Positions 1-26,820 of a stretch of 30,483 nucleotides of DNA are shown here, one piece after another; position 1 is the stretch's first letter; each line of letters opens with the position of its first letter. The stretch is from a virus (lineage: Duplodnaviria; Caudoviricetes). Below the pieces are notes generated by a model. That model was not told where the DNA came from. It did no database searches and saw only the letters and a list, made by a program, of their open reading frames with translations. Made by a program: the position numbers and the translations under genes. The DNA lies in the IMG/VR virus record IMGVR_UViG_3300005805_000314, positions 1 to 30,483 of that record; one strand, 5' to 3'.

Positions 1-76
1 ACGTACCACATGGTACATGTACTCCTACATCCTATGAGCGTGTCCGCATAGGTACGGTGTTAGCGACAGCTAACAT

Positions 77-104
77 CCCCGCCCTTGGTTTCCCAAGAGC
101 GGGG
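77..104 (-). terminator. Stable stem-loop downstream of the small membrane-protein gene (terminator-like or RNA-processing hairpin)
   Basis: Minus strand reads CCCCGCTCTTGG-GAAA-CCAAGGGCGGGG: a 12-bp stem (one G-U pair) with a GAAA tetraloop, 10 nt after the stop at 114. The following U-tract is weak (ATGTT). Confidence 0.5.
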
Positions 105-113
105 GGTTGGTTG

Positions 114-291: not shown

Positions 292-338
292 TGGGGGTGC
301 GGGGGGTCGCAACGCTGTAAACCCACCACACACCCCCA
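292..338. repeat. GC-rich inverted repeat (TGGGGGTG...CACCCCCA, extendable with mismatches)
   Basis: Perfect 8-bp arms at 292-299 and 331-338, with further imperfect G/C pairing inside. It lies between the giant gene's stop and the next SD. Confidence 0.6.
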
Positions 339-365
339 CAAAAATTTGCGATACCTAAGTCGATT

Positions 366-3300
366 TTACATCGGTGCTTTAATTGGAGTTGTAGCCTGTT
401 GTTTCAACGAAGGAGTATTGGCTTCCTTGAGTTGTTGTGTACTAGGTGGTGTCATTGGTGGTCTAGGTTGAGAAGGTGGTGCTTTAGGTGTTGTACTTGG
501 TGGTCTTACACTTCCCCACGGATCTGTACCTACATTTCTAATTGGCAGTGGAGTTGGTTTTGTACCAACAAACTCTTGTTGGGCAATTCTAAACGGAAGT
601 TCGCTTAGGAATGGAATCATTCTACCAAAAGAATCTACGAATGAGTTTTTGACTTCCCATATTTCTTGTTGGTTAAGATTTCCACCTACCTTATCACTAA
701 GTAACCAAGCATCGGCTAGTGAATATGTAGCAGCAGCAGGACCAGCAAAAAGTGTCTTAAGTGCACTATAGGGAACAAAGTCTGGATTAAGTGCATCTAG
801 CCCAGCTCTAGCAGCAAGTTCTGCTCTCTTGACTTGACTGGTATTTCTACTTAATTTACTACGATTATAGCTATCGGTAATAGAAAAGATCATTTCACTG
901 GTAAAGTTAGCAGTTACACCAAAAATTGGATTTCTTGCCAACAAAGTTTTTACCATTTTCATAGGATCTTTTTTCCATAGGAAATCTTCATGACCTGGTA
1001 GTAATGCAGTTAAAGGAAGTACTCCTAATGCAACCATAAGTAATGCATTATAGATAAGATCAAGAATAGAAACTGCAACAAGTAATGGAACATAGTGTCT
1101 AGTTCTCATCTGCGATCCTCTTCTTAGGATCATCTGAGACATAAACAAATTGGGATATTGTCTATAGAAATTAAATAACAATGTCCAAGCTGAGTTGTTG
1201 GTACCAGAATCCCAGGGATTAGGATCTACTGTTGCAATTTCTCTAAACGCTTTGATTGAGTTGTAAATAGCCTTGGTTGTCTGATAGGCTTGATGCTTAT
1301 CAAACTCAATACCCTTACTTAACAATTCACCTAAATCAGTCCAGTTAGCTGTTTCAATAAATCTTAAGGCAGCTTGGAGATCTAAAGTATTTGGTGTTTC
1401 TTTGCTTCTTACGTTAGCAAGCATCCATTCATAGGTTTCTAATACACCATCAGCAAATAATCCAGCTTTGTTTAATTCCTGCATTAAGTGTGGTTGTAAA
1501 TGTCTTCCTGCAAACCAACCAATTAGCCCTGCTTTTTTCATAGCATCATTTAGTTCGGTTAGGTTTGTAATATTACCTGATCGTATGATTTCTCTTACCT
1601 TGTAAAGACTACCATCTCTTTTGCCTGTTTTGCCATCTCGTAAACCTTCAATAATGATTACTTGTGCTTGTTCAGTTAAACCAGTAATAACAGATTGATA
1701 ACCTCTATTGTTATTTTGTCTAAACCAATCTCTTAACTTTTGCATCTTACTGGCATTGCGATCAAAGACTGTATCTGTAATATGCATTACTTCTCTGGAA
1801 TCTTGCATTGCTCTTTCCATACCAAGCATGAGATTTACAGCTGCTCCTCTTTGCTCTATCAAAGTCATGTTTCTTCCAAAGTAAGAACCAAAGAAAGTTC
1901 CAAATACAGTACTTACAAACTGTAGTGGATTACCCCCATAAACTGTTGAAATATAAGTTCCTAACGCACCTTCCATAAGCAAAGATGCGGTATTGAGATT
2001 GGAGCCATAGGCTAATCTTGTAATATCAGGACCATACTTAGCCATTAGTTGAATCATAACACCAACAGCTGTATCTGATCCAATATGAGATAAACCCTGT
2101 TCAATCTTTAGTTTTTCTCTAATAATATTAATTGAGCTTGTTAAAGCAATACTGTTTTCAGTTTTTAATTCATTAACTATTTGTCCAAGAATATTTAATA
2201 ACTCTTCAATATCATAACCAGCAATACCAGTTGCTTCAAAGATAGCACGTTCACTGGCGGCACGGAAACCTTGTCGCCTTTCAACTTCATATAGATGAAC
2301 ATTGGTTGCATAGGATAAGAAAGGAGCAATGTTTTCATCACTAGCCATATCTTTTCCTGAAATTAATCCCCTAGAACTTAAATAATGTACATCTTCACCA
2401 AGATGGCCAAGTACAAGGCTTGCAAGAACTTCTTCTGGTTTACCTTGTCTAATCAAGGAATCTTTTTGGTAATTAAACGCCGAAATTGGTTGTCTTGAAA
2501 TAACACGGTATGGTAATAACGGATTACCGTCTTTGCTGAATAAACCAGAACCATCTACATTTCTACTTGAGTTAAATAGATTTTTAAAAGAATTTTGTAG
2601 TAATTTGTTTCCTCTAAGATTAAACTTAGCGGCAATATGTGGCAATGAATTAGTTGTTCCAGCAAAATGATAAACATCTTTTACTGCGGCTAAGAATGCT
2701 TCTCTAATTAGAGTTTGACTTTGAGTTCCTTCTGCCACAGTGGTTTCTAGTTTAAAGTCTATTCTTAGTATAGCCCGATTTACAAAATCTCCAGCTTTTC
2801 CACGTTCAATGCCGTTTTGTACTAGTTTTTCGATTGTAGCAAGCCGTAAGAATTCAAACGCATCTGGATATTGTTCTCTAACTCTGTTTAATTCAGATAT
2901 AAAATCAGAAGCAGCTGTTTGGTTTTTGTTGATTCTAGGAATAATTCCAGTTAGATAGAATGCAGTTGGATCAACACGCTCAAGTTTAAGAATATTATGT
3001 CTAATTCTTTGAGCTACTGCTTTAACTAGTTGTTCTCTAGCTAATGCTTGTTTTTCTTTAGAAGCCTTAGAAGACCTAACTTCAGACGATCCAATCATCT
3101 TAATGTTAAGTTGTACAGGAAGCATATCCATATACTGATCGCTGTTGCCAAAGATAAATTGTCTAAGGTTTCCAGAATTTGCCCTTAGACTTTCTGATAA
3201 TTCCTGTGCTTTTTGAATTGCTTCTTTATTACTAGTTATATCTTCAATTTTTCTAGTAATATCCATAGCATCTAAATATGCCCACTGTTGAAGATCTTCA

Positions 3301-6300
3301 AACTCTTTGTTAGTAGAAGCAGCAGTTAGTAACTGTTCTGTTCGATAAGTAACTGCTTCTACCCATTGTCTTGTATAGTTTCTATTTTCTCGAATGCCTT
3401 TTGAACCAGATGAAATCTGATATTGGTGTTGAGTTATACTAAAAGTATCACCAATAATGTGCATAAGAGCTGCAACAGTAGGATCACTACTTTCATAAGT
3501 AAATCTGCTTTTTGTTAAACCAGCTGTTAAAGCAAAACTTCTAGCTCTAGAATCAATAAGTCTAGTAACATTTTGTTCTCCAAAGATTCTATTTGCTACT
3601 GTTCGTGTAAGTCCACCAAAAGTTAGATTTGATCTAGATAGTTTACTAGTACGTTGTAAAGCTTCAGTTACTAGGGTTTGTGCAATTTCTTTCTTTTCAT
3701 CAATACTAAGATCCTCAAAGGGAATATAAGCTCTACCTGGTTCTTCAGTAGTTGGGTCTGTTTGTCTAGCTTCTCGTTTACCACGAAGATCATTATACTT
3801 TGCAACCGAAAAATCCTTAACAGCAATAGCTTGATACTTAACACTTAGTCCTGCAAATTCTTCAGCTTCAGACGCATTTAGAGGTCTTGTTTGTTGTGTT
3901 TCATATAACGACTCTAGTCTTTCAAGTTCACTTTGTTCAATACCTAACGGTTGATTATTTGCATCAACAAGATCTATAATATTAAACAAAGATTGATCGG
4001 CATTGTTTATTTCAACCTGTCTATCTACTGGAGCAGCTAGTCCAAACATTGTAATAGTAATATCCATAATTTGATTTAATACTGGTAAATCAACTTCATG
4101 CATACCTACCGCAATATTTGCTAAATCACGTTGGACATTATGAAATGCTTTTTGCCAAGTATTATGGACATCTAATGCTCCACGGCTTCTTGATTGAACA
4201 AACTTAAGAAGTTCATGACTAGCAAAAGTCTTTTGGATTAGGATCCAAGAACCCCAACTTGCAATGAACTCTTCTGGATTATTACTATAGTAGTCTAAAT
4301 CCTTATCAAATCCTAAATACTTTTTACCATTATTCATGGCTAGCATCATTACTTCAATACTTTGTCGTCCACGCGAAGATTTTACTAAAGCTTCGATTTT
4401 ACGCCACTCAGGACTATTGTCTTGAATAAACGCAAGACGGGCAACGTGTGCCATTTCGTGAGCAAATACACGGACTTGATCCGCAGTGCCCATTAATTTA
4501 AGTGTAGTACTATTTAGTCTAATCTTAAACCGATCTCGACTTTTAATTGCAGTTCCTGCTTGGATACTGTCTTCTGCTTCAGTTTCTAAAGAAAAATACT
4601 GAAGTAGTTGGGGATTATGTTTCATTACCTTAACAATCATTAATCGGTAGAAAACAGCTACTTCTTGGGAAATAACTCCCTCATTAATCAGTTGTTGTAA
4701 CTGGAAATTAATCTTAGCACTTTGACCACCTGGGAAATTGATCTCAAATGCTTGTGGATTATAAGCCGATTCGATTAAATCCTGATCAGCAAGATGTTCA
4801 TAACGAACAACACCAGAATCAAAACTACGCAACAATTCCCTAGCTTCTTCTACTGCTTGATCTATTAAAATTACTTGATCTCCTGATGATTGAGTTGCTG
4901 GTTCCCATGTATTGTGTCTACCTAAAATAGTACTTGCAGAAACGTTTACAGGTGAACCTTGTCGTTTAATTCTAGGAATTAAACCATGAACATTTCCAAG
5001 AGCGGCAGATTCTGGATTACCATCTAAAAGTTTCAACGCAGGAGCAAGATAAGGATTACGTCCTTTAATTCTTGCATGGTTAATTGTATCCATGTTTACT
5101 AACATCTTATTAGCCATGTTGTCTATCTGATCCCATTCTTCATCTGTCAAGGATTCGACACCAGCAGCTTCGGCTGTAAGTAAACGTTCTTGTTCAGGTG
5201 TTAAGTTAGTTACGTTTTGTCGTAAAAAGATTAAGAATGACGTAACTCTTGTAAACTTTTGACCAGACTGATAAAATTCTTCTAGTTCTGTTACAACAGG
5301 TTTAAGAATTGGATAACGCTTACCCCTTTGAATTGCAACTCTAATTGTACTAGTAATGGCTGTTCCGTATGGAGTTAATCCATTGTAACTTGGTTGCATG
5401 TTATCGACATGTGTTCTACCGTCATCAATAGCATAATAGAATGCATCGTATGGATTTAAGGTTAAACCTAGTTCATCTCTTAGTTCGGATTGTCCATCTT
5501 TTACTAATAACTTTAATCCATTCTTAGGATCTAATCCATGAAGGTGCTCAAGAATTTCTGTTTCTTCAGCAATTTCTTGTAAGAATCTTTCGTTATATTC
5601 TCCAAAGCGTTGTCTTTGTAGGGCTTGAACTCTTGTTCCAGTACCTAAGAATTTTCCTGTTTGTAGTGCTGTTTCTAGTTTTTCAAGCATTGGTTGGTTT
5701 CGACTACCAACTAACATTTTCTTTAAACCTTCAGCTGTCAAAAGTACAGTAACTTCTTTTGGTCCAACCTTAACTGGATTTGTGGTTGGTGTACCTAAAC
5801 CTGGACGCAAACCAACATAGTTATTATTTGGATTTTCAGGGTCAGTACTTGGTTTAGAAGCCGCTCTACTAAGCGTCCAGTTAGATACTTCTCCAGTAAG
5901 AATATCAACTGTAATATACAGATTAAGGTTGTCAACCGCTGATAGGATTAACTCTGGATCACTAAAGATTGCTTCTGTAATGTGATTATCCCATTCTCTA
6001 GGAATAGAGGAAAGAATAATAAACCCTTGTTGATCTGTTTTAAAATCAAGTCCAAGTTGTTTAGCATAATCAGTTGCTGCTCTTTTAATTCGATCATCAG
6101 CTAATACTTCTAGTATTAATTGAGCAATGTCACGACCTTGTACAAACAATGGTTTAGTCATTGTATATGATTTTTTAAATACATCTATATCTTCACCTTT
6201 ACCAGAAATAACCATATATTCGGTGGGTGAAAGACCATATTTTAAAGCATTTGCTGAAGTAATACCTAGTCTACCTAGTTTAACAATAGCATCGTACCAT

Positions 6301-9300
6301 CGCATGTTTTTACCTAAACTGTCTTTAAACAAATCAGGATCAATAGAAATTTCTTTTACTAAATCAAGAATATTAGTTTCTTTTTTAGCCATATCTCTCT
6401 GATACTTAGTTAAAGTATGGATATCTACAACAAAGTTTCGATGGTCCATTTGTAATTCACGCAGTGATACACCTGTTTTAGCATGGTATCGTAGCATTCT
6501 AGCATAACGCAATGATTTACGATGAATCTTATAAATCTGATACAATCTAGCATATTGTTTAGTTTTGACTAAATCTTCTAATCCAGCTTCAATTGCAAAT
6601 TGATCTAAAATAAACTTAGTCTTATTAATTTTGACTGTAATAGGTAAATCAGTATCAGTAAAAATCGTAGCTAAAGAGTTATTAGAAATAGGAATAAAAG
6701 GAAGTTGATCTGGATTATAAACACTAGATCCTGGTTTACGTTCTTCAAAAATTTGTTGTAGTGTTTTACCTTTAGCTTTGGCTTTATCTAATCCTAGTCT
6801 AATGGCACCAGCTTTTTCTCTCATTTGTTTTGATTTAATGTGGATAGAATATAAACCGTGTACAGCTGCGTCAAGAATATCTTGATCTGCAATACGAGGA
6901 ATAAAACCACCTAAACCCTTTGCATCTTTATTTGTAATAATGGTATCCTGAGCTGAATTAGGCATAGCTAATAAACGAATACCTTCTCTTTTCATAAATG
7001 GAACAGAATTGCTTTGAATATAAGAATCAATCTCGTCATCAGTCATTTCTTTTCTATCTTTGTCATCTCGGAATCGGTCTTGTTGTTTTAAGTATAATTC
7101 CTTAAACTGTTGTCGTTTTGGTCCTCCTCTTGCTAACTGACGTAAATCAAATGATCTTTCAATTTCACTTCTGGTTTGCCAATCCCTAAAGAAATTTTCT
7201 CTAGATTCTTCTTTTTTCCAGTCATATCCAAGGAAGTCTGGTGGGTATTGTGTAGCAAGTCTAATAGCATAGTCTTGAATAGCTAAATCTTCAGCTTTTT
7301 TACGAGCATCTTCAGGAGACAATCCATGATATGGGTGATCTTTAGTAATTTCCCAAAGGCTATTAACAATTGAACTATCCCAATCTAGTTTACCATTTTT
7401 ATCATATTCTAGTCTAAAGCCTTTACTTAGATCTGAGGATTGAAGATTAGTTAGATAATTGCCTGGGTAAGTCATTCTAGAATTACCAGTTCCTAATCCT
7501 GTGGTCATAAATACAATAAAGTTATCAAACATTACATCATCAGGAGAAATATATCTACCTAACTTAACCATAGCCTCTAGGAAATGTTCTTCTGAACTGT
7601 TTAATCTGTATCCAGCACCTTGAATTTTAGTTAGGAATAGTAAAGTTGCTTGTTGTTTGTACTGTTGTTCTCCTCCAGCTAAAGCAACCATTACTTCTCG
7701 TTCTAAATCACTTCCTTTTACAAAACCCCGACCCGTTGAAACATTATTAGATGTTTTATGGGCCTCATCAATTATTTTTTCAGCTTGTTTAATTCTACCA
7801 CTCCATTTAGCAAGAATTTGTTTTTTCTTTTCTTGAACTAAACGTTCGGTTTCGTCCCTAACTGCCATTCTTTTCTTTTCATCAGACATTTTATTGTAGT
7901 TAGGGATTGTTCTAGGCTCCAGTGGTGGAATACTTAAACGAGCTACATACTCAATTCTAGCCATAATAGCTTTTCTCATTACTTCAATTGAAATAATATC
8001 ATTTCGTAGTAATGTATCGTTGTCTAGAATATTTTGAATATCAATAGCATACTTATCAACTAATTGCTCTGTGTCACTCATTAACGCACCAGTTAATTTA
8101 GAAACAAGATTTGCATCCATACCTAGAATATCGTCAATTAAACGCCCTTGAACAATAATTGAAGATTGGGTTAAGGTTTGAGCAATAATTTCAATTTGAC
8201 GGTTTGTTAAGTTATTTAATGGATCTCCAACTTTAGCAGATCGTTTGGATCTGAGTTGTTTGATAACACCTTCTTTACCACCACTATAGATAACTGGAAT
8301 TACAACACCCTTAAAGAAATCTCTAGTTGTAGTTGAGCTATTTAGTATTTCTTCAATTCCATCAATTTCTTCTAAGTCTTTTTGTCTATTTGAACTTTCC
8401 CATTTAGAAGAAGGATCAGCTACTATTTCTCTTAAGGTAGTTAATTTTTCTCTAAATACAGTATCTGTTTTAGTATAGTAATCAGTTAATTGATTTTTAC
8501 TTACACCTAATTCCCCACCGTTTCTAATTTCAAGTAGCTTTGTAAGTAAACTAACAGAATCTGGAAAGTATGCTCTTTGCATTACAAGTAAATGGTGAAT
8601 ACCGCTATTTGTATCATCCCAATATGTAGCTTTTGAAAAACCCATACCTTTTCTGACAGCTTCTCTAGCATCTCGTAATGACGCTTCAACTAATTCTCTA
8701 CTTGCGTTTATTTTTTTAGAATTTTGGTCTAAATAAAACTGAGGATTGACTAAATAGTGAGCAACTAAAGATGAAATTCCAGTAAATAAAGTTCTACCAG
8801 AAGGACCACCAGCCGAAAGAGCAGGATCTAAGATATAACTTGGTTGTTCTAGTACTAATTCAGTATCTCTAGGCGTATTTTTTGAATCGTGAACTAAAGT
8901 TGCAATGTATTGTGGAAGTTGTAAAGCAGCTTCCAGTGACATTTCAATTTCTTCTTCCATTGTTGGAATTCTAGTATAGATATCTTTATTATTTACACGA
9001 CTAAATAAACCATATCTCTGAACTCTACCTTGATCTAAACGCATTTCATCTAATAATGCAGTATAGTTATCAAACTCTTGTTTAGCTTCGTCAAATACTT
9101 TCTTTTGTTTAGCTTTTGTTTTTTGAAGTTCTGCTAGTTTTTCTTCATTAGTTTCTTTTCTAATGTCTTTTTCAGTTTGACGTAGTTCTTTCTTAGCATT
9201 TATTACTTTGTTTTGTAATTCTGCATAACGATTTTCAGCAATAAACTTTTTCCATGCTTCTCTTTCAGGATCTCCAATTTTAGCGTTTAGAATTGCTTTA

Positions 9301-12300
9301 TAACGCTTACGGAGTGCCCAGTCACTATGGAGCCTTTCCTGCTCAAAACGGCTTAAAGGTGAAAAGAATGACACATTCGTTGGCTTTAGAGGCAAATACT
9401 CTCGTTTGGTAATTTCACCCTCTAAGGATTCAACATCCAACACATCTCCAGCAGCATCTTTTTCTTCTTTTACTCTATCTACTTCTTCCATAGTTGAGTC
9501 AATGCTTTGAGTTAGGGTATTACCTTCTCGCACAAAGCCTAAAACAATCTGAGCAAAGCCACGCCCAAGTTGGGATGCTGGGATATAGTCAAATACCCCA
9601 TTACCATAATCTTCAAAAGTATATTCTTTGTTATTAAACAGTTTATTTACAAACTTAAACAACTCTCCAATATAGTTTTCTAAACTTTCGTTATTTGTCC
9701 CGTCAATTTCTCTAAATCCAACAATAACAGCAAACTTTTGAATATAAGAAGCCATTGAAGAACTACGCTTATAAGCATCAAATGTAGCAACAAATGAGTC
9801 ATGTACTCTATTTAGGTATGCTTGTACACTGTTTGTAAGAATTGGAGAAAGTTCTTTTGTTCTAACATCGCGTGACCAATCAGTAATAAACTTATTTCCA
9901 AACTTAGCGCGTTGTTCACGTTTAACAACCATGTAACCATCATGGTCAAGTTGTGAAAGCCTTAATACAAAATCGTAATGCTTGCTGATTTGATCTGGGG
10001 TTTGAATCAAGCCTTCTAAGATTCTGTGGATTTCGCTTGGATTAGTTTCATTGATAGCAAGAATTAGTAGATTAATTACTAGGTTTTGAACCTCAGTTAA
10101 ATCATACATTAATTCTGAACCAAGATTATATCCTAAATTATTTCTAATATTTTGGAATGGTTGGATATCATAAAGATGGTGAATTCCTTTATATCCAGCA
10201 TGGAATCCAACTCCAGGGTTTCCTGTATCAAACCAAAGTGGAACTACTTGTTGAATTTTAACGGTTTGTTCTCTTTGGTTGTCAGCAGGTCCTGATAATA
10301 CTCTCATTTCGGTATTAGCTTTTGAAACCATCTGTTGCAAGACGATTCCACTGGTTAAAGCCGATGCTGTTAGATTTTCACTGTATTCTACAGATGTCGA
10401 ATCAAGGGTAGATAGATCCTCTACTACGCCTTTAAACCCAGAAGTATAATAGGCTCTAGCTAAGTTGTTAAGGCTTGCTGGTCTATTGCGTGAGAAATTG
10501 GATGTAGGAGCTCCCCTAAACGCTAATAGAGCCGTATCAAACACTCTTAGGGATATGGTGAGTAGTTTTTGTAGGTCGCCTGAGTTAACCGCTAATGCGT
10601 TTATATCGCCGTTACGACCTAGGATATTATGGCCTACAACTTTAAATCCTTTGTTTTGAAACTCAGCTAAGATATTAATAGCACTGTTGATTTCTTCTGA
10701 ATTTAAGAATTGTCCACTAGATGGTTTAAATGAATGGACTACTCTTTCCTCATTACTCATAGTAACAATAGAAATACCATTAACTTTGTTTGTTTTAGGA
10801 TCAATACCAACTTTAAAAGTGATTAAATGATTAAAATCAAACATAAAGTTTGGATTTTGGAATTCTGGTAATTTTTGAATTTCTTCGTCAGAGTATCCAT
10901 ATGCCTTTAGAGATTGTCTTAAAATTTCTAGTTTTTTATCTGGATCGTGACTAAACTCTAGTTGATCCATATCCAACTCTTGTGGATTTGTTATTGTAGA
11001 ATCAAATAACGTAAACAAACTCTGGGCATCTGTACCTAGTGCTGCAATTAACGCCCACTCTGGAATAACGCCATTAAATCTTGGTGACAAACTTAAAGTG
11101 TTAAGACGACCTAAAACGTTTCTTAGATCTACAATAAAAGCATTCTTATCCTGTGCTGTAGTAAGGTTATACTGCTTTCCAGTAACCGCTTGACTAGCCT
11201 CTGTAAAAGATCTTGTTGTTGGTTGTGGGTCTTCTGGATTTACACCAGAAATTAGTTTACGATCTCCTGCTACAATAATATCTTGGACTTGTTTAGCTTC
11301 TTCTAAATCAAAGCTATTATCAAAAATGTTTTCTCTTTCCATTTCTGACCAAATATCAAAGATTTTATTCATATCTTCTTTAGTAATGAATTCTTTTAAT
11401 TGGGTATTTGGTTTTGTTGAATCGGTTTTAACTTCAGATCCATCTGGGTTTGTTGCGGTTTCTTTAAACATTGCTTGAATAACAGGCAAAGTAGTTATAT
11501 CCTTACCAAACAATCTTATAGCTTCAGGCAAAGTAAACTTATCGTCATCCTTGGCATTTTTAATTGTTTGTTTAACAAACTGAATTCGATCTCTAACTCG
11601 GATAGCTCGTTGTTTAATATCTCGTAAAGAAGATGCAAAGAAATCTGGTTTTACACCAAAAGTTGAAACCACAGCCTGGGCAAAATAAAGATCAGCATTA
11701 GAGTCATCTAATTTATCAATCTTTATTTTCAAATCTGTAATACGTTTAGATGTACTTTGTCGAATTTCTTTTTGTCTTTCGCTCTCAACCTGACTAAGTT
11801 CTGCTTGTAATTTTCTGACTTCAGAAGCTAATTCTCTCATTTCTTTTTGAAAATCTTCATTTGCTTGCATTTCTTCTTCTTCAGTCAGTTCGGCATCTTC
11901 TTCCATAAACAACTTTCGTTTATTCTTTGCTTGGATAGATAAAGCCAAAATCTTTTGTTCTATTTTTGCTTGGTTTTTAGCAGTCTCTTTGTCTCCAACC
12001 TCTAATAACGCCTCTAATAAAGCAATTTCCATTAACAACTTTTCTCTTTTTTTACTATTGTCTTGAATAGCATTCCAGTCAATTTTAAGTTGACTAGAGA
12101 CAAGTTGTGCTTTTCTCATATTCTTTAAAGCTGCCTCTAGTTTTTCAATTTGTTTTGTATCTTTTCGCTGCTTAGCTGCTTCTAAACTATTTTCTAAAAG
12201 TTCCATAGCAGTAATAGTTCGATCCGCTGGAGTAGCGGTAATTAAATCCATAACATATTTTAAACGCTCAACACTTACACGAGCTTTGTTAGATGTAAGT

Positions 12301-12635
12301 TTAAACTTAGTTAATAATCTTAGAAAACGATCTTTACGTTCATTATCCATAATGTCAAAGAATGACTTGCCTTTTTGAACCTCTGATGCAATAAACTCAA
12401 TTTCAGACTCAAATAACGTTACTTCGTCATCAGACATTTTATCTGCCTTAGAAATAATTAACGTTTTATATGCATCAATAAAACCAGTTATACCTTTTTT
12501 TTCTAAATCCTTATTAACTTTAACTACAGCAGCAGCAACCTCTTCGGGTGTTCTATTAGATCCATCTGGGTTTTTAAGAATTTCAGTGTTAACAATTTCT
12601 TGAATATTAAGTGGATTGCATTTTTTCTTAGCCAT
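366..12635 (-). CDS. Giant polyvalent virion/ejection protein with a single-subunit (T7/N4-type) RNA polymerase domain (putative virion RNAP), 4089 aa
   Basis: Uninterrupted 12.3-kb ORF with SD AAGGA. Motif A-like YWDDTNSGIHH (aa 1338-1348; T7 has DGSCSGIQH). Motif B-like RDFFKGVVIPVIYSG (R1438, K1442, Y1450; T7 has RSVTKRSVMTLAYG). Candidate motif C VMFDNF (D1704). PSGR at aa ~1281. Also a degenerate DEDD exonuclease fold (aa ~605-765), HEMAH (aa 2726-2730) plus EEFIA, and hydrophobic C-terminal helices. One Cys seen. Confidence 0.8.
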   Translation of the reverse strand: MAKKKCNPLNIQEIVNTEILKNPDGSNRTPEEVAAAVVKVNKDLEKKGITGFIDAYKTLIISKADKMSDDEVTLFESEIEFIASEVQKGKSFFDIMDNERKDRFLRLLTKFKLTSNKARVSVERLKYVMDLITATPADRTITAMELLENSLEAAKQRKDTKQIEKLEAALKNMRKAQLVSSQLKIDWNAIQDNSKKREKLLMEIALLEALLEVGDKETAKNQAKIEQKILALSIQAKNKRKLFMEEDAELTEEEEMQANEDFQKEMRELASEVRKLQAELSQVESERQKEIRQSTSKRITDLKIKIDKLDDSNADLYFAQAVVSTFGVKPDFFASSLRDIKQRAIRVRDRIQFVKQTIKNAKDDDKFTLPEAIRLFGKDITTLPVIQAMFKETATNPDGSEVKTDSTKPNTQLKEFITKEDMNKIFDIWSEMERENIFDNSFDLEEAKQVQDIIVAGDRKLISGVNPEDPQPTTRSFTEASQAVTGKQYNLTTAQDKNAFIVDLRNVLGRLNTLSLSPRFNGVIPEWALIAALGTDAQSLFTLFDSTITNPQELDMDQLEFSHDPDKKLEILRQSLKAYGYSDEEIQKLPEFQNPNFMFDFNHLITFKVGIDPKTNKVNGISIVTMSNEERVVHSFKPSSGQFLNSEEINSAINILAEFQNKGFKVVGHNILGRNGDINALAVNSGDLQKLLTISLRVFDTALLAFRGAPTSNFSRNRPASLNNLARAYYTSGFKGVVEDLSTLDSTSVEYSENLTASALTSGIVLQQMVSKANTEMRVLSGPADNQREQTVKIQQVVPLWFDTGNPGVGFHAGYKGIHHLYDIQPFQNIRNNLGYNLGSELMYDLTEVQNLVINLLILAINETNPSEIHRILEGLIQTPDQISKHYDFVLRLSQLDHDGYMVVKREQRAKFGNKFITDWSRDVRTKELSPILTNSVQAYLNRVHDSFVATFDAYKRSSSMASYIQKFAVIVGFREIDGTNNESLENYIGELFKFVNKLFNNKEYTFEDYGNGVFDYIPASQLGRGFAQIVLGFVREGNTLTQSIDSTMEEVDRVKEEKDAAGDVLDVESLEGEITKREYLPLKPTNVSFFSPLSRFEQERLHSDWALRKRYKAILNAKIGDPEREAWKKFIAENRYAELQNKVINAKKELRQTEKDIRKETNEEKLAELQKTKAKQKKVFDEAKQEFDNYTALLDEMRLDQGRVQRYGLFSRVNNKDIYTRIPTMEEEIEMSLEAALQLPQYIATLVHDSKNTPRDTELVLEQPSYILDPALSAGGPSGRTLFTGISSLVAHYLVNPQFYLDQNSKKINASRELVEASLRDAREAVRKGMGFSKATYWDDTNSGIHHLLVMQRAYFPDSVSLLTKLLEIRNGGELGVSKNQLTDYYTKTDTVFREKLTTLREIVADPSSKWESSNRQKDLEEIDGIEEILNSSTTTRDFFKGVVIPVIYSGGKEGVIKQLRSKRSAKVGDPLNNLTNRQIEIIAQTLTQSSIIVQGRLIDDILGMDANLVSKLTGALMSDTEQLVDKYAIDIQNILDNDTLLRNDIISIEVMRKAIMARIEYVARLSIPPLEPRTIPNYNKMSDEKKRMAVRDETERLVQEKKKQILAKWSGRIKQAEKIIDEAHKTSNNVSTGRGFVKGSDLEREVMVALAGGEQQYKQQATLLFLTKIQGAGYRLNSSEEHFLEAMVKLGRYISPDDVMFDNFIVFMTTGLGTGNSRMTYPGNYLTNLQSSDLSKGFRLEYDKNGKLDWDSSIVNSLWEITKDHPYHGLSPEDARKKAEDLAIQDYAIRLATQYPPDFLGYDWKKEESRENFFRDWQTRSEIERSFDLRQLARGGPKRQQFKELYLKQQDRFRDDKDRKEMTDDEIDSYIQSNSVPFMKREGIRLLAMPNSAQDTIITNKDAKGLGGFIPRIADQDILDAAVHGLYSIHIKSKQMREKAGAIRLGLDKAKAKGKTLQQIFEERKPGSSVYNPDQLPFIPISNNSLATIFTDTDLPITVKINKTKFILDQFAIEAGLEDLVKTKQYARLYQIYKIHRKSLRYARMLRYHAKTGVSLRELQMDHRNFVVDIHTLTKYQRDMAKKETNILDLVKEISIDPDLFKDSLGKNMRWYDAIVKLGRLGITSANALKYGLSPTEYMVISGKGEDIDVFKKSYTMTKPLFVQGRDIAQLILEVLADDRIKRAATDYAKQLGLDFKTDQQGFIILSSIPREWDNHITEAIFSDPELILSAVDNLNLYITVDILTGEVSNWTLSRAASKPSTDPENPNNNYVGLRPGLGTPTTNPVKVGPKEVTVLLTAEGLKKMLVGSRNQPMLEKLETALQTGKFLGTGTRVQALQRQRFGEYNERFLQEIAEETEILEHLHGLDPKNGLKLLVKDGQSELRDELGLTLNPYDAFYYAIDDGRTHVDNMQPSYNGLTPYGTAITSTIRVAIQRGKRYPILKPVVTELEEFYQSGQKFTRVTSFLIFLRQNVTNLTPEQERLLTAEAAGVESLTDEEWDQIDNMANKMLVNMDTINHARIKGRNPYLAPALKLLDGNPESAALGNVHGLIPRIKRQGSPVNVSASTILGRHNTWEPATQSSGDQVILIDQAVEEARELLRSFDSGVVRYEHLADQDLIESAYNPQAFEINFPGGQSAKINFQLQQLINEGVISQEVAVFYRLMIVKVMKHNPQLLQYFSLETEAEDSIQAGTAIKSRDRFKIRLNSTTLKLMGTADQVRVFAHEMAHVARLAFIQDNSPEWRKIEALVKSSRGRQSIEVMMLAMNNGKKYLGFDKDLDYYSNNPEEFIASWGSWILIQKTFASHELLKFVQSRSRGALDVHNTWQKAFHNVQRDLANIAVGMHEVDLPVLNQIMDITITMFGLAAPVDRQVEINNADQSLFNIIDLVDANNQPLGIEQSELERLESLYETQQTRPLNASEAEEFAGLSVKYQAIAVKDFSVAKYNDLRGKREARQTDPTTEEPGRAYIPFEDLSIDEKKEIAQTLVTEALQRTSKLSRSNLTFGGLTRTVANRIFGEQNVTRLIDSRARSFALTAGLTKSRFTYESSDPTVAALMHIIGDTFSITQHQYQISSGSKGIRENRNYTRQWVEAVTYRTEQLLTAASTNKEFEDLQQWAYLDAMDITRKIEDITSNKEAIQKAQELSESLRANSGNLRQFIFGNSDQYMDMLPVQLNIKMIGSSEVRSSKASKEKQALAREQLVKAVAQRIRHNILKLERVDPTAFYLTGIIPRINKNQTAASDFISELNRVREQYPDAFEFLRLATIEKLVQNGIERGKAGDFVNRAILRIDFKLETTVAEGTQSQTLIREAFLAAVKDVYHFAGTTNSLPHIAAKFNLRGNKLLQNSFKNLFNSSRNVDGSGLFSKDGNPLLPYRVISRQPISAFNYQKDSLIRQGKPEEVLASLVLGHLGEDVHYLSSRGLISGKDMASDENIAPFLSYATNVHLYEVERRQGFRAASERAIFEATGIAGYDIEELLNILGQIVNELKTENSIALTSSINIIREKLKIEQGLSHIGSDTAVGVMIQLMAKYGPDITRLAYGSNLNTASLLMEGALGTYISTVYGGNPLQFVSTVFGTFFGSYFGRNMTLIEQRGAAVNLMLGMERAMQDSREVMHITDTVFDRNASKMQKLRDWFRQNNNRGYQSVITGLTEQAQVIIIEGLRDGKTGKRDGSLYKVREIIRSGNITNLTELNDAMKKAGLIGWFAGRHLQPHLMQELNKAGLFADGVLETYEWMLANVRSKETPNTLDLQAALRFIETANWTDLGELLSKGIEFDKHQAYQTTKAIYNSIKAFREIATVDPNPWDSGTNNSAWTLLFNFYRQYPNLFMSQMILRRGSQMRTRHYVPLLVAVSILDLIYNALLMVALGVLPLTALLPGHEDFLWKKDPMKMVKTLLARNPIFGVTANFTSEMIFSITDSYNRSKLSRNTSQVKRAELAARAGLDALNPDFVPYSALKTLFAGPAAATYSLADAWLLSDKVGGNLNQQEIWEVKNSFVDSFGRMIPFLSELPFRIAQQEFVGTKPTPLPIRNVGTDPWGSVRPPSTTPKAPPSQPRPPMTPPSTQQLKEANTPSLKQQATTPIKAPM

Positions 12636-12645
12636 TGTAGTTTCC

Positions 12646-15600
12646 TTATTCTAAATCACAAAGCTTATCAGTATCTAGGTCGTCATCTAGTTTAGCATCA
12701 CTAGAGCCTAAATCATCGGGGTTTAGTGAACCATCAGTTACGGCACCAAGAATTTCTAATGATGCTATTGCAGCATCATAAGTAGTTTCTACTGGTTTAG
12801 TTTCAGGTGGTGTTGGGGGTTTTGCAGCTTCTGGAGCTGTTTCAACAGTTTCTTCTTTTTGATAAAATGTAATATTTCCTGTTATTCGACTTGTTACATA
12901 TTGCCTTTCTTCGTTTTTTTCTAAATCAAGTGCTTTAATTGTTTGTTTGCCTTTATCATCAGTAGTTACACTAATAACCCTAACTCTACGCTTTTCTCCA
13001 CTTCGTGTTCCTGATGAGTATTCAAACTCAATTTCATCATCTTTTTTTAATAAACCTATAATTGTAGTATTTGCAGATAATGCAACACTTTCTTCTTCTT
13101 TTGTTTCTATAGACTCGTTTGTTGGGGTGGGTTGAGTTTCAACAGGAGTTTCTTTAGGTTTAGTATCAACCGCTGTTTCTGCTTCTTGTTTAGCATAAAC
13201 ACCAATTTTACCTATAAGTCTTTCATCATTGGAAGTTTGTTCGATTCCAGTTGTTTCAATATCACTAAAGGCAATAATAGGTTTACCTTGTTCATTTTGA
13301 AATACTAATGATATACCAAAAGCAACTGTTTCTTCGCCTTTAAAAGTTAAAACTTGTCTAATAATAACAGATTCATCTTTTGCGGGACTAACATCTTCAA
13401 AATAAACTAGAATTAAATTAGCAATTTGTCCAGCTTCATAAGTACTTTCTATAAAGTCTTTAAGAGCTTTTAATCCACTTTCATCTTGTGAAAATGTTAA
13501 ATTAGCTTGACCAAACTTAACATCACTAGTCCAAATATTATCAGTTTTGTCACGTTTTTTAAAAAAAGATGGAACTTTTTCTAATTCTTTTGCTTTTTCA
13601 AGACTTGAGGTTTCTTTTACTTGCTGAGCGGTTGGAGTTACATTTACTTTATCTTTATTAGGTTTAATTACAATTTTTCTACCCAAACCATCATCAACTT
13701 CAATTGTTTGATTGGTTTGATTTGCTTGCTCTTGGGCTGTTTCCGTAATTGTAGTTTTAGTATCTCTAGAATAAGTTAACTCAGGATTACTTAACGGAGT
13801 CATCTGACCATTAGCATCTTTAGGTGCACTGTCGGCACTACCATACATAAATACAGCAGCGCGCGTATTTAACGTTTGTAAATAGTTAACTACAGTATCT
13901 GTTTCGTCATCAGTCATACTTGCTAGATCCTCTATAGTTGGATCTTCTAAATCTGTTTCTCCTTGGTTTCTTCTGTCTTGTGCCTGACGTTTTTTCCATT
14001 CTAACCACATTAAACCTACAAATTTATTTGATTTAATATCTGCTTCGGTATCGTGAAAAGCACTTTCTTGTAGGGTATATGCCATAAATACAGACATCAA
14101 ATCATCCCTAGTTACATTAGTTTTACCTGTATTTGGATCTCTTTTTTTATCTAGAATAGCAGAAAAAATCCTAAATAACTGAGTTCGATGGTCTACACCA
14201 GTATTGTCTAATTCTTTTAAAAACGTTTCAACTACATTATCTTTTGGATTTAAGAAATCAAAATCAGGAATAATATCTACAATTTCATCATTACGTTTCA
14301 TTAAATCATAAGCTCTAAAACGTAAATCAATTTGTTGTGATAGAGTTAATTTAACATCTGGTGATTTAGTATTAAGACCTAAGGTTAACCCAGCAACGTA
14401 TTCAATATTTCGTCTTGTTCGTTTAGATAATGAAGTCCATACGGCATCTTGGATTTCTAAGTTTTTTTCTTTAATTCGTTTTTGAACAATAGAAAGAAAT
14501 TTGATTTTTTCTTTTGCATTAATATTAAAGGTTTTTGAGAAATTCATTGTGGCATTCATTGCACCACCTAATAACAACTCACCTACAGCTTCTTCAACAA
14601 TATTTTGTCCTAAAGCAGTATAAGTAAACGTGTCTTTAAATCCAGTAGCCATTGCATTTTGTTGTCTAATTACGTCTTCAATAGCTCCTTGACCAGCACC
14701 ACTGATTAAAGAACGTAACGCATATCTTCCTAAAACTTTAGCTTCTTGTTTAAGTCCACCAGCTTTAACAAAATCAGACCAAACAGATTTTTTTAATAGG
14801 TCACCCATTGTATCAAGCTTTAAAGCAGTTTCTCTTCCTTTTTCACCTGTGTATAATATGTTTTTAAGTTTTGAACTTTTTGCGGCTAACCTTAGTAAGT
14901 TTTCACCTACATAATGTGGAGCAATAAACCCTACGGCTTTTCCAACTCCATTGGTTGTATATAAAAAAGCTTTAGTAACTGTTCGACTTGTTTTGGCAAC
15001 TCTAGCTAATCTTTCAATTTTAGTAAGCGAAGATCTAGCCCTACTAAACATTTTAAAAACACTAGATAATTTAGAAGTTACACCTACCGCAGTAGCGGCT
15101 ACACCAGGAACTGCGGCAACACCTGTTGCAGTTAGTGCTAGACCACCACCAATTAAAATAAACTCCGCAACAGTATCATTACTGTTTAAAGAATCTCTAA
15201 TTACTGGATAGATAAACTTAAAAGTATTTCTCTCAAAAAACCCTGCTTGTTTTGAAAACTCATCTAAAACCAATCCAGTAGCAAATGTATCTAAAGCATC
15301 AGCAATAAAGAATTTAAATGTTTGAGGATTTTTAGCTACAATAGGATCTAACAAACGCTCTTCTGGAATACCCATTTGGGTAAATAACGCATAAGCAATT
15401 TTTGGATTGCTGACTTTTAACTCTTCAATTGCTTTTTTTGGATCCCAAAGAACTTCACCATTAGGCCCTGTAGGAACCTCAGCATTCTGTAATATTTCTA
15501 AAGGATTGGTTCTCATAAATGGCAAACTTGTAGAAGCTTCCCAGCTAAAGAAATATGGTGAAATGTTTGTCATTGTGTCTAAATAAGCTTTTACTGTAGG

Positions 15601-16239
15601 ATCTTCTTTAAACATTTCTTTTAAATAAGGAGATGCATTTTCCCATAATTCGCCTTTTGCACCACCCCGCATTCGTTCTGCAAAAAACCTAAGCGTTTGA
15701 CCATTCATAGATACAAGTTCATTAAACTGGGGTGATTCTGCTTTAGGATCTAATAAAAAACCCCAATTTGAAGCCGATCTAAAAGTTAGTTCTCGTATGT
15801 TTGAGTTACTACTAGCAAAGTATTTTGGTAGGATTGCTTCTCCTGGTTTTTTATCAGCAATTAAAGATACAGACAAAGCAAAATCATTAAGAGCAAGTTC
15901 TTCATTAAAACTAATTTTAGCTTCGTTTTCAATGTCAATGTTTTTTTGATTTGGGTTTTGTTTTATAGCTTCTCGTAATGCGTCTGTGTAAAGATCTAAT
16001 TCTTTGGTTCTACGTTCTTTATCATTCTGAACAAACTCACCTTGTCTAATTAAACCTTGTTCTTGTTGATCCTGAATATACTGAGTAATTCTTTGTTTTT
16101 CAGTTTCGTCTTCGTCAAGACTATAATTAGAAAGGTAAACAGGAGGTTTGTTAAATGAAACACCAGGAAAAAACGTAGAGTTTGTTTGACCCGCAGCATT
16201 AAATCTAGTTTCAAATTGACCAGTACTAAATAAGCTCAT
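12646..16239 (-). CDS. Putative internal virion (ejection) protein with a hydrophobic membrane-insertion segment and a C-terminal WYL-like domain, 1197 aa
   Basis: Long ORF starting immediately after the upstream stop, SD AAGGGGG. Gly/Ala-rich hydrophobic stretch FILIGGGLALTATGVAAVPGVAATAVGV. WYL-like pattern IEFEY...RRVRV...IKALDLEKNEERQYVTSRI between Pro/Glu/Thr-rich linkers. Lies in the ejection-protein block. Confidence 0.65.
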   Translation of the reverse strand: MSLFSTGQFETRFNAAGQTNSTFFPGVSFNKPPVYLSNYSLDEDETEKQRITQYIQDQQEQGLIRQGEFVQNDKERRTKELDLYTDALREAIKQNPNQKNIDIENEAKISFNEELALNDFALSVSLIADKKPGEAILPKYFASSNSNIRELTFRSASNWGFLLDPKAESPQFNELVSMNGQTLRFFAERMRGGAKGELWENASPYLKEMFKEDPTVKAYLDTMTNISPYFFSWEASTSLPFMRTNPLEILQNAEVPTGPNGEVLWDPKKAIEELKVSNPKIAYALFTQMGIPEERLLDPIVAKNPQTFKFFIADALDTFATGLVLDEFSKQAGFFERNTFKFIYPVIRDSLNSNDTVAEFILIGGGLALTATGVAAVPGVAATAVGVTSKLSSVFKMFSRARSSLTKIERLARVAKTSRTVTKAFLYTTNGVGKAVGFIAPHYVGENLLRLAAKSSKLKNILYTGEKGRETALKLDTMGDLLKKSVWSDFVKAGGLKQEAKVLGRYALRSLISGAGQGAIEDVIRQQNAMATGFKDTFTYTALGQNIVEEAVGELLLGGAMNATMNFSKTFNINAKEKIKFLSIVQKRIKEKNLEIQDAVWTSLSKRTRRNIEYVAGLTLGLNTKSPDVKLTLSQQIDLRFRAYDLMKRNDEIVDIIPDFDFLNPKDNVVETFLKELDNTGVDHRTQLFRIFSAILDKKRDPNTGKTNVTRDDLMSVFMAYTLQESAFHDTEADIKSNKFVGLMWLEWKKRQAQDRRNQGETDLEDPTIEDLASMTDDETDTVVNYLQTLNTRAAVFMYGSADSAPKDANGQMTPLSNPELTYSRDTKTTITETAQEQANQTNQTIEVDDGLGRKIVIKPNKDKVNVTPTAQQVKETSSLEKAKELEKVPSFFKKRDKTDNIWTSDVKFGQANLTFSQDESGLKALKDFIESTYEAGQIANLILVYFEDVSPAKDESVIIRQVLTFKGEETVAFGISLVFQNEQGKPIIAFSDIETTGIEQTSNDERLIGKIGVYAKQEAETAVDTKPKETPVETQPTPTNESIETKEEESVALSANTTIIGLLKKDDEIEFEYSSGTRSGEKRRVRVISVTTDDKGKQTIKALDLEKNEERQYVTSRITGNITFYQKEETVETAPEAAKPPTPPETKPVETTYDAAIASLEILGAVTDGSLNPDDLGSSDAKLDDDLDTDKLCDLE

Positions 16240-19200
16240 TTATGGTATCCCCCTTGTGCCACTCATAAAATTAAGTCTTTCTTCACTTTTTTCCATTTCA
16301 GAAAGACGTTCTTCTTCTTTTTGTTTTTCATTGTTTAATACTGAAAGAGTTTGTAAACGTTTTTGAAACTTTTTAGTATTATCTAAAAACGAAGTAAAGA
16401 ATGCGTTGTTTAAAGAAAGTAGTGGACCATTGAAATCACGATTAATCCAATCATAACTCGGTAAAAAAGAACTTACATTTCCTGTGTTAAACTCTTGTGT
16501 TATTGTAGAAAATCCAGGTAACTCTGAATTATACTTTGAGTTAATAAGCCGTCTAGTACCACCACCAGCAATGTATACTTCATTTAACATTTCAATTTTT
16601 TCTTTAAAAGTTAGATCTTGATTTCCTTCACTAAGAACAGCCATTAATGCTAGTTTAGCTGGTTTACTATTAATAGGTACTTCTTGTTCATCACTTAATA
16701 ATAAATCTGGCATTGTTTGATACCCTGGAGTTACTAAACCTTCGGCTTCTAACCATGGAGTAATAGCTGCTAAGAATGTTGCATCGTCTGGAACATGTTC
16801 TAGGATAGTAGACCCAACCTTAAAAAGCATACCATTTGCAGAAATAGCACCATTCTTTTTGGGATTATATTTACCTGTAACATCTTCTAATAAAGACATA
16901 CCTAAATCTTTGTTTCCAACAAACTCATTAAGAGTAGCTGTTAGATTAAAGTTATTAGATGATCTTGATGGGTTTTGGTTATATACAGCATAGAATGATC
17001 CAAAAACTCCTGGTGAAATTTCTACTTGTTGTTTATTAAAGGGAGTATCTTGAGTTGTATAAGCCCCAGTTACAAATAAAGGATTTCTAACAATAAGATC
17101 AATATCTAAAGCTGTTCCTAAAAAGTTAAAGAAGTTTCTAGATTGTGTTTCTGCTCTTCTTTCTCCTTCTCCTGGAGCAAATAAGGGATGCTTACCAACT
17201 GGTCCCATAAAGCCACGCATAGCTCCTGAAAGCAAGCGTCTATTATTAGAAGTTGTTTCCCAAAGTAATGTAGCTCCCTTACGAATAGTTTCTTCATCTG
17301 ATAATGGAGGTAATGTTGGATCTATAGAACCACTTAAAATTGAATCACGCATACTAATAGCAATTCCTTGTATGGTTTCTCCTGGACCAAAAAATCCAGA
17401 AGATTGCATATTACTAACAAATGTGTCAACACTCCAATTAGGATCAGATGGAGATAGTCCTTCATTTCCTCGTAATACAATTGTTTTTCCAGCTTCTTGT
17501 TGTTGGTTTAATTGTTCACCTATTTGTGGATCTAATTGAACTCCTAATGCAGACATCGCAATAGCAACACTTTTGTCTTCTAAAGTATAAACCATACCAA
17601 CTCTACCAGCATTACCACCGCCCATTTCAAAAGTCATTTCAACATTTGTATCTGGTACTTGCATACTAGCAACAACTAATGGCATTGCCACAGCTAAATC
17701 GGCTTTTGCTCTAAATTCTGGATTTGTAAAAAAGTCGGCTACGTTACCTAAACTGTAATCTTCAGCTGCTGCTCCCATCAAAAACAATCTAGTTTCAACA
17801 TAAGATGCATTTCCAACGTTAACTACTAAACCCCTATCGTAATTTTTCTTATACTCTAAACCCAAAGCCATTAAAGCTGTAGCTTGTAAAGCTTTTTGTG
17901 GGTTTTGAATTAGTTCATTAATGTCTCTAACATTACCTAAACCTTCTGTTATTTTTTTAAAAGCATCACCAAATCTATCTCTTTCAGACCAATTACTTGA
18001 AGTTCCTAAAGTGCTTCCAATAAGAATTGACTGTACTAAAAATCTTTTACCTTCATAGGTAAAATCTTTACCATTCCAAGCGTTATTTGGGACTCGACCA
18101 TCATATGGTTCAGCACCGCCAGTAACAAACTCCATAGACATTCTTTCTAATTCTACAGCTAAGTTATTAGCATAGGTTTCTGCTTCTTCTCCTGTAAGTC
18201 CATTAAATCCAGGAAGTGCTTCTAATAGGCGAGGTTGTAATGCTTGAACTTGAAGATCAAGGACAAACAAAGCAGAAACATGGTCATCTAAATAGTTTCC
18301 TGGGCTTCCGTCTGATTTCATGTATTTAAATATAGAATGAATATCACCCGAAGACATAACAAATGCATGAGCGGCTTGTTGTTGTGGTGTAAGCTTTGTT
18401 AAATTAAGACTTCCATCTTGATTATACGCACTTTGGGGAAGTGTTAGTAATGTTTTCTGAGCATGGTATGCTTGTCTAACTAAATCTAAATATTTTCTAT
18501 TCTCGTTACTTTGGGCAAATCGTCCAGTTATTAAACCAGAAACCAACGAACCTTGGCTTTGTGTAATGTTTGGAGTATTATTTGGAGCAAACTCTTGTGC
18601 ACTTCTAATATAAGCATTTTGTTGCTCTTCTGTTAAAGGACCGCTGCCGCTTGTTAGTTTTGATTTATGCTCAAGAGCAGCTTGTTCTATTTGTTGTGCT
18701 AAATTAGCGTCAGTTTCAAGCATTTGCTTTACATTACCAAGATTTATACCACGCAATGCTAGATTCTTTCTACTTTCTTCACTTAATGATTTATACCAAG
18801 TTGCAAAGTCTTTTTCGGTTCTAAATTGTGTAATACCCTTAGAATCAACTTCTGTATATAACTTTCTCCACTCTTCTACAGGAACTCCATATTTTGAAAT
18901 AGAAATTGAACCCAAAGAACTATTGGTAAATGAATCTACAGCTTGTTCGGTACCCATAAGTCCAATACTTTGGATATTTAAATTTGTTTGAATTTTGTTT
19001 CTACTGTTCCATTCTTCTACTGCTTTTTGAAAAGTAGGATCATTGGATGCTATAGCTCTTGAAGCACTTTCTAAATAGTCATTTAATTGATCTTTAGGAA
19101 CACCAGCAATTCTAGCAATATCTAAATTTCTACCTAAATTTCTAATATGTTCTCGTACAATTTGAATTTTTTCAAAAGGACTTAGTAAACTCCAATTTGG

Positions 19201-26811: not shown

Positions 26812-26820
26812 GGGTTCTCC

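Follow-up and report, generated by a model that had tools for sequence, protein, structure and literature searches.

A candidate rewired RNA polymerase in a giant ejection-block protein of T7-like phages

Introduction

The closest described counterparts of the locus studied here are found in the phages N4 and T7. N4 gp50, the virion RNA polymerase (vRNAP) of the Schitoviridae, is a giant, cysteine-poor protein of 3500 amino acids (aa), the product of the largest gene of its ejection block, and it carries a central polymerase followed by an HExxH motif (PMC13434306, PMC5512222). This HExxH lies at 2228 in the gp50 sequence and is mentioned in PMC13434306. N4-like polymerases are described as always fused to such domains (PMC5512222), and according to a paper of 2026 a giant polymerase of this virion type occurs in Schitoviridae alone (PMC13434306). 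The present study concerns a protein of 4089 aa encoded on the minus strand of a viral DNA stretch of 30,483 nucleotides (IMG/VR record IMGVR_UViG_3300005805_000314, positions 1 to 30,483; hereafter the window), which is like N4 gp50 in each of these general features. The account that we favour, with a confidence somewhat above even, is that this giant protein is a packaged ejection protein with a rewired, probably active RNA polymerase.

The differences from N4 are considerable. N4 gp50 has the motif order TxxGR-A-B-C, as compared to C-A-B-DxxGR in the giant protein, and its motif C is FDG, as compared to HD followed by S, C, G or A. The giant protein has an exonuclease fold in front, and no similarity between the whole proteins was detected; short blocks alone align. 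At the genome level the lineage differs from N4 by a T7-type portal, scaffold, tube, nozzle, terminase and primase-helicase, and by single-chain polymerases in place of a split RNAPII. The giant protein would work like the N4 vRNAP and stands outside that family. In N4 RNAPII (gp15-gp16) both the thumb and the N-terminal domain are truncated, and the enzyme is naturally divided into a DX2GR part and an A-B-C part (PMC4496689). An early polymerase of about 600 aa in relatives of the window phage is similarly minimal; RNAPII, however, is a heterodimer with the normal order, whereas the enzyme of about 600 aa is a single chain and is accompanied by a third, full-size polymerase.

The likeness to T7 lies in the T7-type motifs A, C and DxxGR/NPQG, in the structural and replication genes and in a stand-alone polymerase of about 811 aa in relatives. 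In contrast, T7 RNA polymerase gp1 is a stand-alone enzyme of 883 aa with the normal motif order, and the present genomes, of about 62-70 kb, contain three polymerase-like genes and have their ejection block placed after the terminase. T7 gp16 has 1318 aa and recruits the host polymerase (PMC13434306). The RdRps (RNA-dependent RNA polymerases) of the Birnaviridae and Permutotetraviridae also have motif C upstream of motif A, with a canonical catalytic site (PMC8310298). They are RNA-templated enzymes of RNA viruses and the likeness is one of analogy, not kinship; in the giant protein DxxGR is displaced as well.

Conserved motifs and their order in the giant protein

The features of the giant protein that concern the polymerase are as follows.

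366..12635, minus strand: giant protein, 4089 aa; closes the ejection block; sole cysteine C6
6036..9638, minus strand: polymerase module, about aa 1000-2200, with approximate boundaries, from conservation and block comparisons
8883..8900, minus strand: motif C candidate TLVHDS (aa 1246-1251; H1249, D1250), before motif A; kept in 37/37, model scan and T7 block alignment
8592..8624, minus strand: motif A (D1340, G1345, H1347); conservation, model scan and alignment to T7 534-653
8475..8483, minus strand: DYY after motif A (D1385), like T7 D569 and N4 DLY; D in 37/37
8277..8324, minus strand: motif B (R1438, K1442, Y1450, G1453); conservation, model scan and alignment to N4 mini-vRNAP
7596..7652, minus strand: thumb-base motif (aa 1662-1680), like T7 314-331, followed by a short thumb; alignment and model scan
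7413..7520, minus strand: DxxGR block with NPQG-like tail (aa 1706-1741; R1720), after motif B; R in 37/37, T7 and N4 alignments
6099..6170, minus strand: possible pre-motif-C helix (aa 2156-2179; D/E2169), tentative; T7 alignment and model scan

Six full-length relatives of the giant protein, at 36-40% identity, came from a word search; when 1.84 billion representatives were searched with a profile, 46 matched at E<=0.001, most of them about 4,000 aa long. The alignment used here holds 37 proteins, that is 35 picked from both searches and two loci; 15 of the 50 ids were dropped, mainly short fragments. Pairwise identity across aa 1200-1950 ranges from 15 to 81% with a median of 22%. It was found that H1249, D1250, D1340, G1345, D1385, K1442 and R1720 are present in all 37 proteins, and 1250, 1340 and 1385 are the only Asp columns kept in 37/37 anywhere in the giant protein. 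H1347 is kept in 36/37, and Y1450 in 34/37 with F in the other three. The form Rx3Kx7YG of motif B is found with R or K at 1438 and with its G shifted to 1452/1453. All 37 rows have the order C-A-B-DxxGR, with spacings of 79-138, 93-134 and 236-291 residues, and because the order is common to all of them it is not an assembly artefact. Well-kept Asp residues after motif B are D1501 (34/37), D1700 (34/35) and D2201 (32/35). A subgroup of 5,100-5,360 aa (L129 137-15460; L130 2903-18502; L132 335-16414) keeps the layout with HD before motif A, but there the polymerase module comes first and the exonuclease motif follows it.

An earlier note on this DNA had proposed a polymerase within the same open reading frame (ORF), which is real at 366-12635 on the minus strand, and its general claim of a polymerase module in a giant protein ending the ejection block of a T7-like phage is supported by gene order, low cysteine content, motif conservation and model scans. 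Its four strings are all correctly placed, namely PSGR at aa 1278-1281 (8793-8804), YWDDTNSGIHH at 1338-1348 (8592-8624), RDFFKGVVIPVIYSG at 1438-1452 (8280-8324) and VMFDNF at 1701-1706. Motif A at D1340 and motif B at K1442/Y1450 were confirmed by the counts given above, and D1340 and K1442 are each the top column among about 3,800 for their motif. From the proposed D1340/D1341 pair D1340 stood and D1341 did not, as the latter is D in 14/37. The remaining assignments had to be given up. PSGR was read as the DxxGR motif, and its R1281 is R in just 6/37; at D1704, read as motif C, Asp is not one of the six residues found most often, which limits D to at most 2/37, and it is D in 1/11 close homologues. 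The N4-like spacing from B to C falls with D1704, and the canonical order of motifs is contradicted by the order C-A-B-DxxGR. Our own first reading, with DxxGR at R1204 in normal order, was likewise dropped, since R is found there in 21/37.

Comparison with T7 and N4 polymerases

T7 D537, K631, D812 and R425 and N4 D559, K670 and R424 have established catalytic roles, and T7 G542 is the small residue that admits ribonucleotides. The catalytic residues were located in fetched records, and reference profiles were made from fetched sequences of 47 T7-type polymerases, 9 N4-type vRNAPs and 12 minimal polymerases. Seven blocks of the family were compared with these by HHalign, each against nine reversed or shuffled nulls. 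Three of the seven matched the expected places in T7 above all nine nulls, two of them in N4 too. The motif C block (aa 1246-1258) aligned with T7 808-820 at a score of 23.9 against a highest null of 20.1 (E 0.011), and aa 1337-1464 with T7 534-653 at 25.1 against 23.7. The best block was aa 1383-1463, which covers DxY and motif B and aligned with N4 mini-vRNAP 608-691 (39.2 vs 18.2, E 1.7e-4). The region aa 1662-1741 aligned with T7 314-444 (31.7 vs 17.7, E 8.7e-4), and within it aa 1706-1740 with N4 411-442 (28.5 vs 20.4, E 0.0039). For the possible pre-C helix the alignment to T7 774-797 was above the nulls and that to N4 912-939 within them. Two other candidates were rejected: a hint that aa 1012-1090 correspond to the late fingers of T7 failed to exceed the nulls, and a degenerate second motif A at D1917 gave 9.0-11.9 for the block 1890-1950, below nulls of 15.6-17.1.

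Eight position-specific motif models were averaged over 35 non-redundant rows and scanned over the roughly 3,800 columns; the models were chosen after the alignment had been viewed, and every scan still took in all columns. All eight rank the proposed site first. The motif C model places D1250 at the top with z 7.2 (next 4.4), or 6.6 with T7-type windows alone. The top values for the other motifs are 6.0 for A (D1340), 7.5 for B (K1442), 6.6 for GR (R1720) and 4.9 for NPQG (Q1732); the thumb-base model has 1669 first with z 6.9 (next 6.1) and the pre-C model D2169 with 5.7 (next 5.1). With language-model features of aa 1050-2000, six of the seven matches listed belonged to PF00940 or to N4 vRNAP families, the best at 0.87, which serves as a lead only. 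The similarity of the module to known polymerases is weak and block-wise. A search by hmmsearch with an 11-row family profile against the T7, N4 and G003 polymerases (G003 being a complete relative) gave nothing significant.

Taken by sequence, the module is very likely to be derived from a polymerase, its motif order is likely to be non-canonical, and it is predicted with fair confidence to be active as an RNA polymerase. In such an enzyme D1250 and D1340 are predicted to meet in one palm and to bind two metals, K1442 and Y1450 to bind the incoming nucleotide, and R1720 to lie beside the hybrid. The invariant G1345 matches T7 G542 and therefore points to synthesis of RNA rather than DNA. As no single circular permutation of DxxGR-A-B-C yields C-A-B-DxxGR, at least two rearrangements would have been needed. 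Both joints are tolerated elsewhere, because viral RdRps with C before A have functional palms and normal active sites (PMC8310298) and N4 RNAPII is naturally split after DX2GR (PMC4496689).

Several observations weigh against this account. The remaining four of the seven blocks gave nothing with HHalign. The motif C match covers 13 columns, was not seen against the N4 profile and was below the null against the minimal-polymerase profile; by inspection a helix is conceivable for the stretch preceding H1249, and this would fit a motif C hairpin poorly. When single proteins were ranked, the proposed site came first in 11/37 for D1250, 6/37 for motif A and 14/37 for motif B, and a long ungapped GR model put R1720 first in 0/37. 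HHalign with the whole module gave a probability of 36.5% for N4, the best, and 1.6% for T7. The giant protein matches no polymerase among Pfam, PHROG and PDB sequences and does not reach the PF00940 cut-off; tblastn of the module against 50,697 phage records, 383 of which match the N4 mini-vRNAP, gave nothing relevant; and in the language-model comparison aa 1000-1330 alone lacked polymerase clusters. In addition, the two further polymerase genes described below are known from relatives only, the window being a 44% fragment without them.

Alternative explanations

The module could be derived from a polymerase and no longer make RNA, serving instead to bind or pull DNA during ejection while host RNA polymerase reads the early genes as in T7. 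A broken motif order, a short thumb and the presence of two other polymerases are what would be expected in that case, and the adjacent exonuclease fold is already degenerate in the window phage. This is nevertheless unlikely, as two Asp residues of metal-binding type and the nucleotide-binding Lys are kept in 37/37 proteins at 15-81% identity, whereas the residues of the exonuclease and HExxH domains vary. The early sigma-70-like sites of one relative, which are at chance level (L003, 5 vs 5.0), also speak against it, weakly, since T7 promoters are likewise not above shuffled sequence. It could also be imagined that the exonuclease fold of DEDD type ahead of the module, which looks intact in most relatives, is a proofreading domain like that of family A DNA polymerases, and that the protein makes DNA or primers. 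We consider this very unlikely: motif A is of the kind seen in RNA polymerases, with the G of T7 G542 present in 37/37, DxxGR/NPQG are RNA-polymerase features, the complete relative encodes its family A DNA polymerase and its primase-helicase separately, and in the group of about 5,100-5,360 aa the exonuclease comes after the module.

Other explanations concern the motif order itself. The module may be a mosaic of two partial polymerase copies: C, A and B would come from one (aa ~1000-1520), and the thumb base, the DxxGR and the pre-C helix from another, dead and in normal order (aa ~1655-2210). This would account for the position of the pre-C helix at 2156-2179, far from D1250, and for the fact that P1913-D1917 is 252 residues ahead of D2169, as T7 D537 is 250 ahead of D787. 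On the other hand the block 1890-1950 is unlike motif A and scores below its nulls, aa 1640-2260 cannot be aligned colinearly with any of the T7, N4 and minimal profiles, and no motif has a convincing second copy, all of which makes a mosaic distinctly unlikely. A normal order, with motif C at D1704 or another Asp after motif B, is highly improbable. In its favour D1501, D1700 and D2201 are well kept, but D1704 is rarely D, none of these four is among the four best columns of the motif C model, and a DxxGR after B breaks the normal order regardless; the GR at 1203-1204 of the close group has R in only 21/37. The reading of a rewired and probably active polymerase is therefore the one followed below.

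Gene order and probable packaging

The window record is a linear fragment, 44% complete, in which a PF00940 match is absent; the sequencing runs that match it best are lake-water metagenomes, and two of these may have yielded it. The genes around the giant gene form a minus-strand operon whose products, in order, have 221 (tail tube), 921 (nozzle), 1000 (tail fibre), 554 (large terminase), 226, 1401, 1197 and 4089 aa.

23809..30251, minus strand: tail fibre (T7 N-terminal domain), nozzle (gp12-like) and tail tube (gp11-like), by Pfam and PHROG
21133..22797, minus strand: large terminase, T7-type (PF22530, phrog_38)
12646..21122, minus strand: three genes upstream of the giant gene, 226, 1401 and 1197 aa, with 0, 0 and 1 cysteine

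The Pfam and PHROG matches of these genes confirm the T7-type tail and packaging neighbours claimed earlier. The products of 226, 1401 and 1197 aa are likely to be the remaining ejection proteins; the 232-aa counterpart of the first in relative L003 has a weak T7_gp14 match (E 0.92). The giant protein has 1 cysteine in 4089 residues, while the terminase, fibre and nozzle of the window have 6-11; for comparison, N4 gp50-52 and T7 gp15-16 have 0 and T7 RNAP has 12. By analogy, this near absence of cysteine supports an ejected cargo, and packaging of the giant protein in the virion is very probable. The large terminase is placed between the tail genes and the four-gene ejection block, which differs from the T7 order and is alike in relatives. 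It was also observed that the sole cysteines sit at facing ends, C1194 in the 1197-aa protein (12646-16239) and C6 in the giant protein (366-12635), and C6 is kept in 34/36 rows.

Additional polymerases and a possible transcription cascade

The earlier note had called for a check of the rest of the genome for a second RNA polymerase, and two more were found, in relatives. A canonical T7-type polymerase of about 811 aa is encoded by all nine relatives that are at least 90% complete (1/1 and 8/8). More broadly it is present in 1/4 records of one set, and a PF00940 match in 13/18 of a second set, the latter being 18 of the 20 loci L115-L134. The other is a minimal polymerase, an ORF of 586-660 aa located about 1-2 kb beyond the giant gene with motifs in normal order.

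L003 23195-25018; L115 23627-25516; L125 13269-15029; L130 18697-20679; L133 22935-24812: minimal polymerase of about 600 aa, first large early gene

It matches the T7 profile by HHalign at 99.9% (E 6e-37), and in an alignment of 12 sequences, with near-duplicates left out, all 12 have R (GR), D and G (A), K and Y (B), D (pre-C) and HD (C). It is found in 9/9 near-complete genomes, seven of them in the alignment and the other two by a match to its profile. Pfam often misses it, PF00940 having matched in 2/4 tested. The complete relative G003 also encodes a T7-type primase-helicase, a family A DNA polymerase, a portal and a scaffold, and its polymerase is 26-28% identical to the best named matches. 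Judged by these relatives, the phage genome is predicted to encode three single-subunit polymerases. The suggestion of an injected enzyme that replaces the separate polymerase of T7 is not supported, as all nine relatives at least 90% complete encode the polymerases of about 811 and about 600 aa.

In the infection cycle that we propose, the 226-, 1401- and 1197-aa proteins would form a channel, as judged from N4 (PMC4496689, PMC13434306), and the giant protein would be threaded through it into the cell. The injected polymerase could then transcribe the first genes, the minimal polymerase among them; the minimal polymerase would express the middle region including the gene of about 811 aa, and the polymerase of about 811 aa could serve replication and the late genes. 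With such a three-step cascade the phage may depend hardly or not at all on the RNA polymerase of its host. The fullest version of this account is that a widespread, uncultured T7-like lineage with genomes of about 69 kb injects an active permuted C-A-B-DxxGR polymerase, the first of its kind among T7/N4/mitochondrial enzymes, and completes the entire cycle with three polymerases of its own and without host RNA polymerase; this version is tentative and is given somewhat less than an even chance.

A literature search over titles and abstract openings, with most subscription papers outside its scope, found no description of a permuted single-subunit polymerase or of this lineage. If true, a lineage with T7-type parts would break the Schitoviridae-only rule. 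A natural permutation would show that the palm of the T7 family tolerates rewiring, which is so far known for enzymes of RNA viruses; it would also account for the failure of profile searches to detect the giant proteins. Three single-subunit polymerases per genome make host-independent transcription directly testable, and the lineage offers new enzymes with new promoter types.

Other domains of the giant protein

Outside the polymerase module three further features were noted.

10311..10838, minus strand: DEDD-type 3'-5' exonuclease fold, about aa 600-775; PF13482 over cut-off in 4/12 distant homologues, PF10108 in one
4446..4460, minus strand: HExxH zincin-like motif (HEMAH 2726-2730; E2789 downstream); SprT-like, E 3.8e-4, below cut-off
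990..1094, minus strand: long hydrophobic segment (aa 3848-3882), the only one by hydropathy scan; possible membrane anchor

The catalytic-type Asp columns of the exonuclease have D in 27, 31 and 28 of 37 proteins. The window phage has K608, N675 and S758 at these places, and its exonuclease fold is therefore probably inactive, while the fold appears intact in most relatives. The SprT-like HExxH is the sole Pfam or PHROG match of the giant protein. E2727 and H2730 are kept in 33/33 rows with a residue there and H2726 in 21/33; in the other 12/33, the A6 subgroup (e.g. L115, L118, L121), EExxH replaces HExxH. A specific kinship of this domain with N4 C1 was not borne out, as the match to the N4 C1 profile is barely above the null (32.6 vs 30.6).

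DNA elements and the early region

Two DNA elements lie beyond the end of the giant gene.

293..365, minus strand: junction element at the late/early boundary, lineage-wide; 16-base head, G run, about 22 variable bases, C runs
30..106, minus strand: three-hairpin element, repeated ahead of small early ORFs in close relatives

The junction element directly follows the giant gene in the window and in relatives. Its exact 16-base head was found in 37 viral contigs (L135-L171), with the C-terminus of the giant protein upstream in 21/37 and the minimal polymerase downstream in 20/37, and the layout of G run and C runs is present in 28/32 distinct copies, the window copy included. The element has a fixed spacing and a variable core and is kept among phages with about 20% identity between their giant proteins. 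It could serve as the first promoter or else mark the genome end or act in packaging. The three-hairpin element has no family in Rfam and is not lineage-wide, its third-hairpin pattern being present in 3/33 junction loci. In close relatives it forms clusters (L002 22256-23263, L003 22242-23122, L004 21242-22395) just before ribosome-binding sites, with paired changes in the third stem.

In the first 4.1 kb beyond the junction of L003, 5 sigma-70-like sites were found against 5.0 expected, one of them, a 9-of-12 site, being on the coding strand ahead of the minimal polymerase. Such a scan is uninformative as a count, for the three real promoters of T7 are also not above shuffled sequence (3 vs 4.4). 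Relatives were searched for with A6 patterns in 185,579 prokaryote genomes and were not found, and these genomes therefore give no clue to a host or prophage. The G+C content is 0.45 in positions 1-1000 of the window as compared to 0.31-0.37 in the giant gene; the early region of relatives (L002 22000-25500) looks G+C-rich as well, which may hint at the host. The early region of L003 also has a Pistol ribozyme at 26667-26737 on the plus strand, scoring 50 bits against the Rfam gathering score of 34.5.

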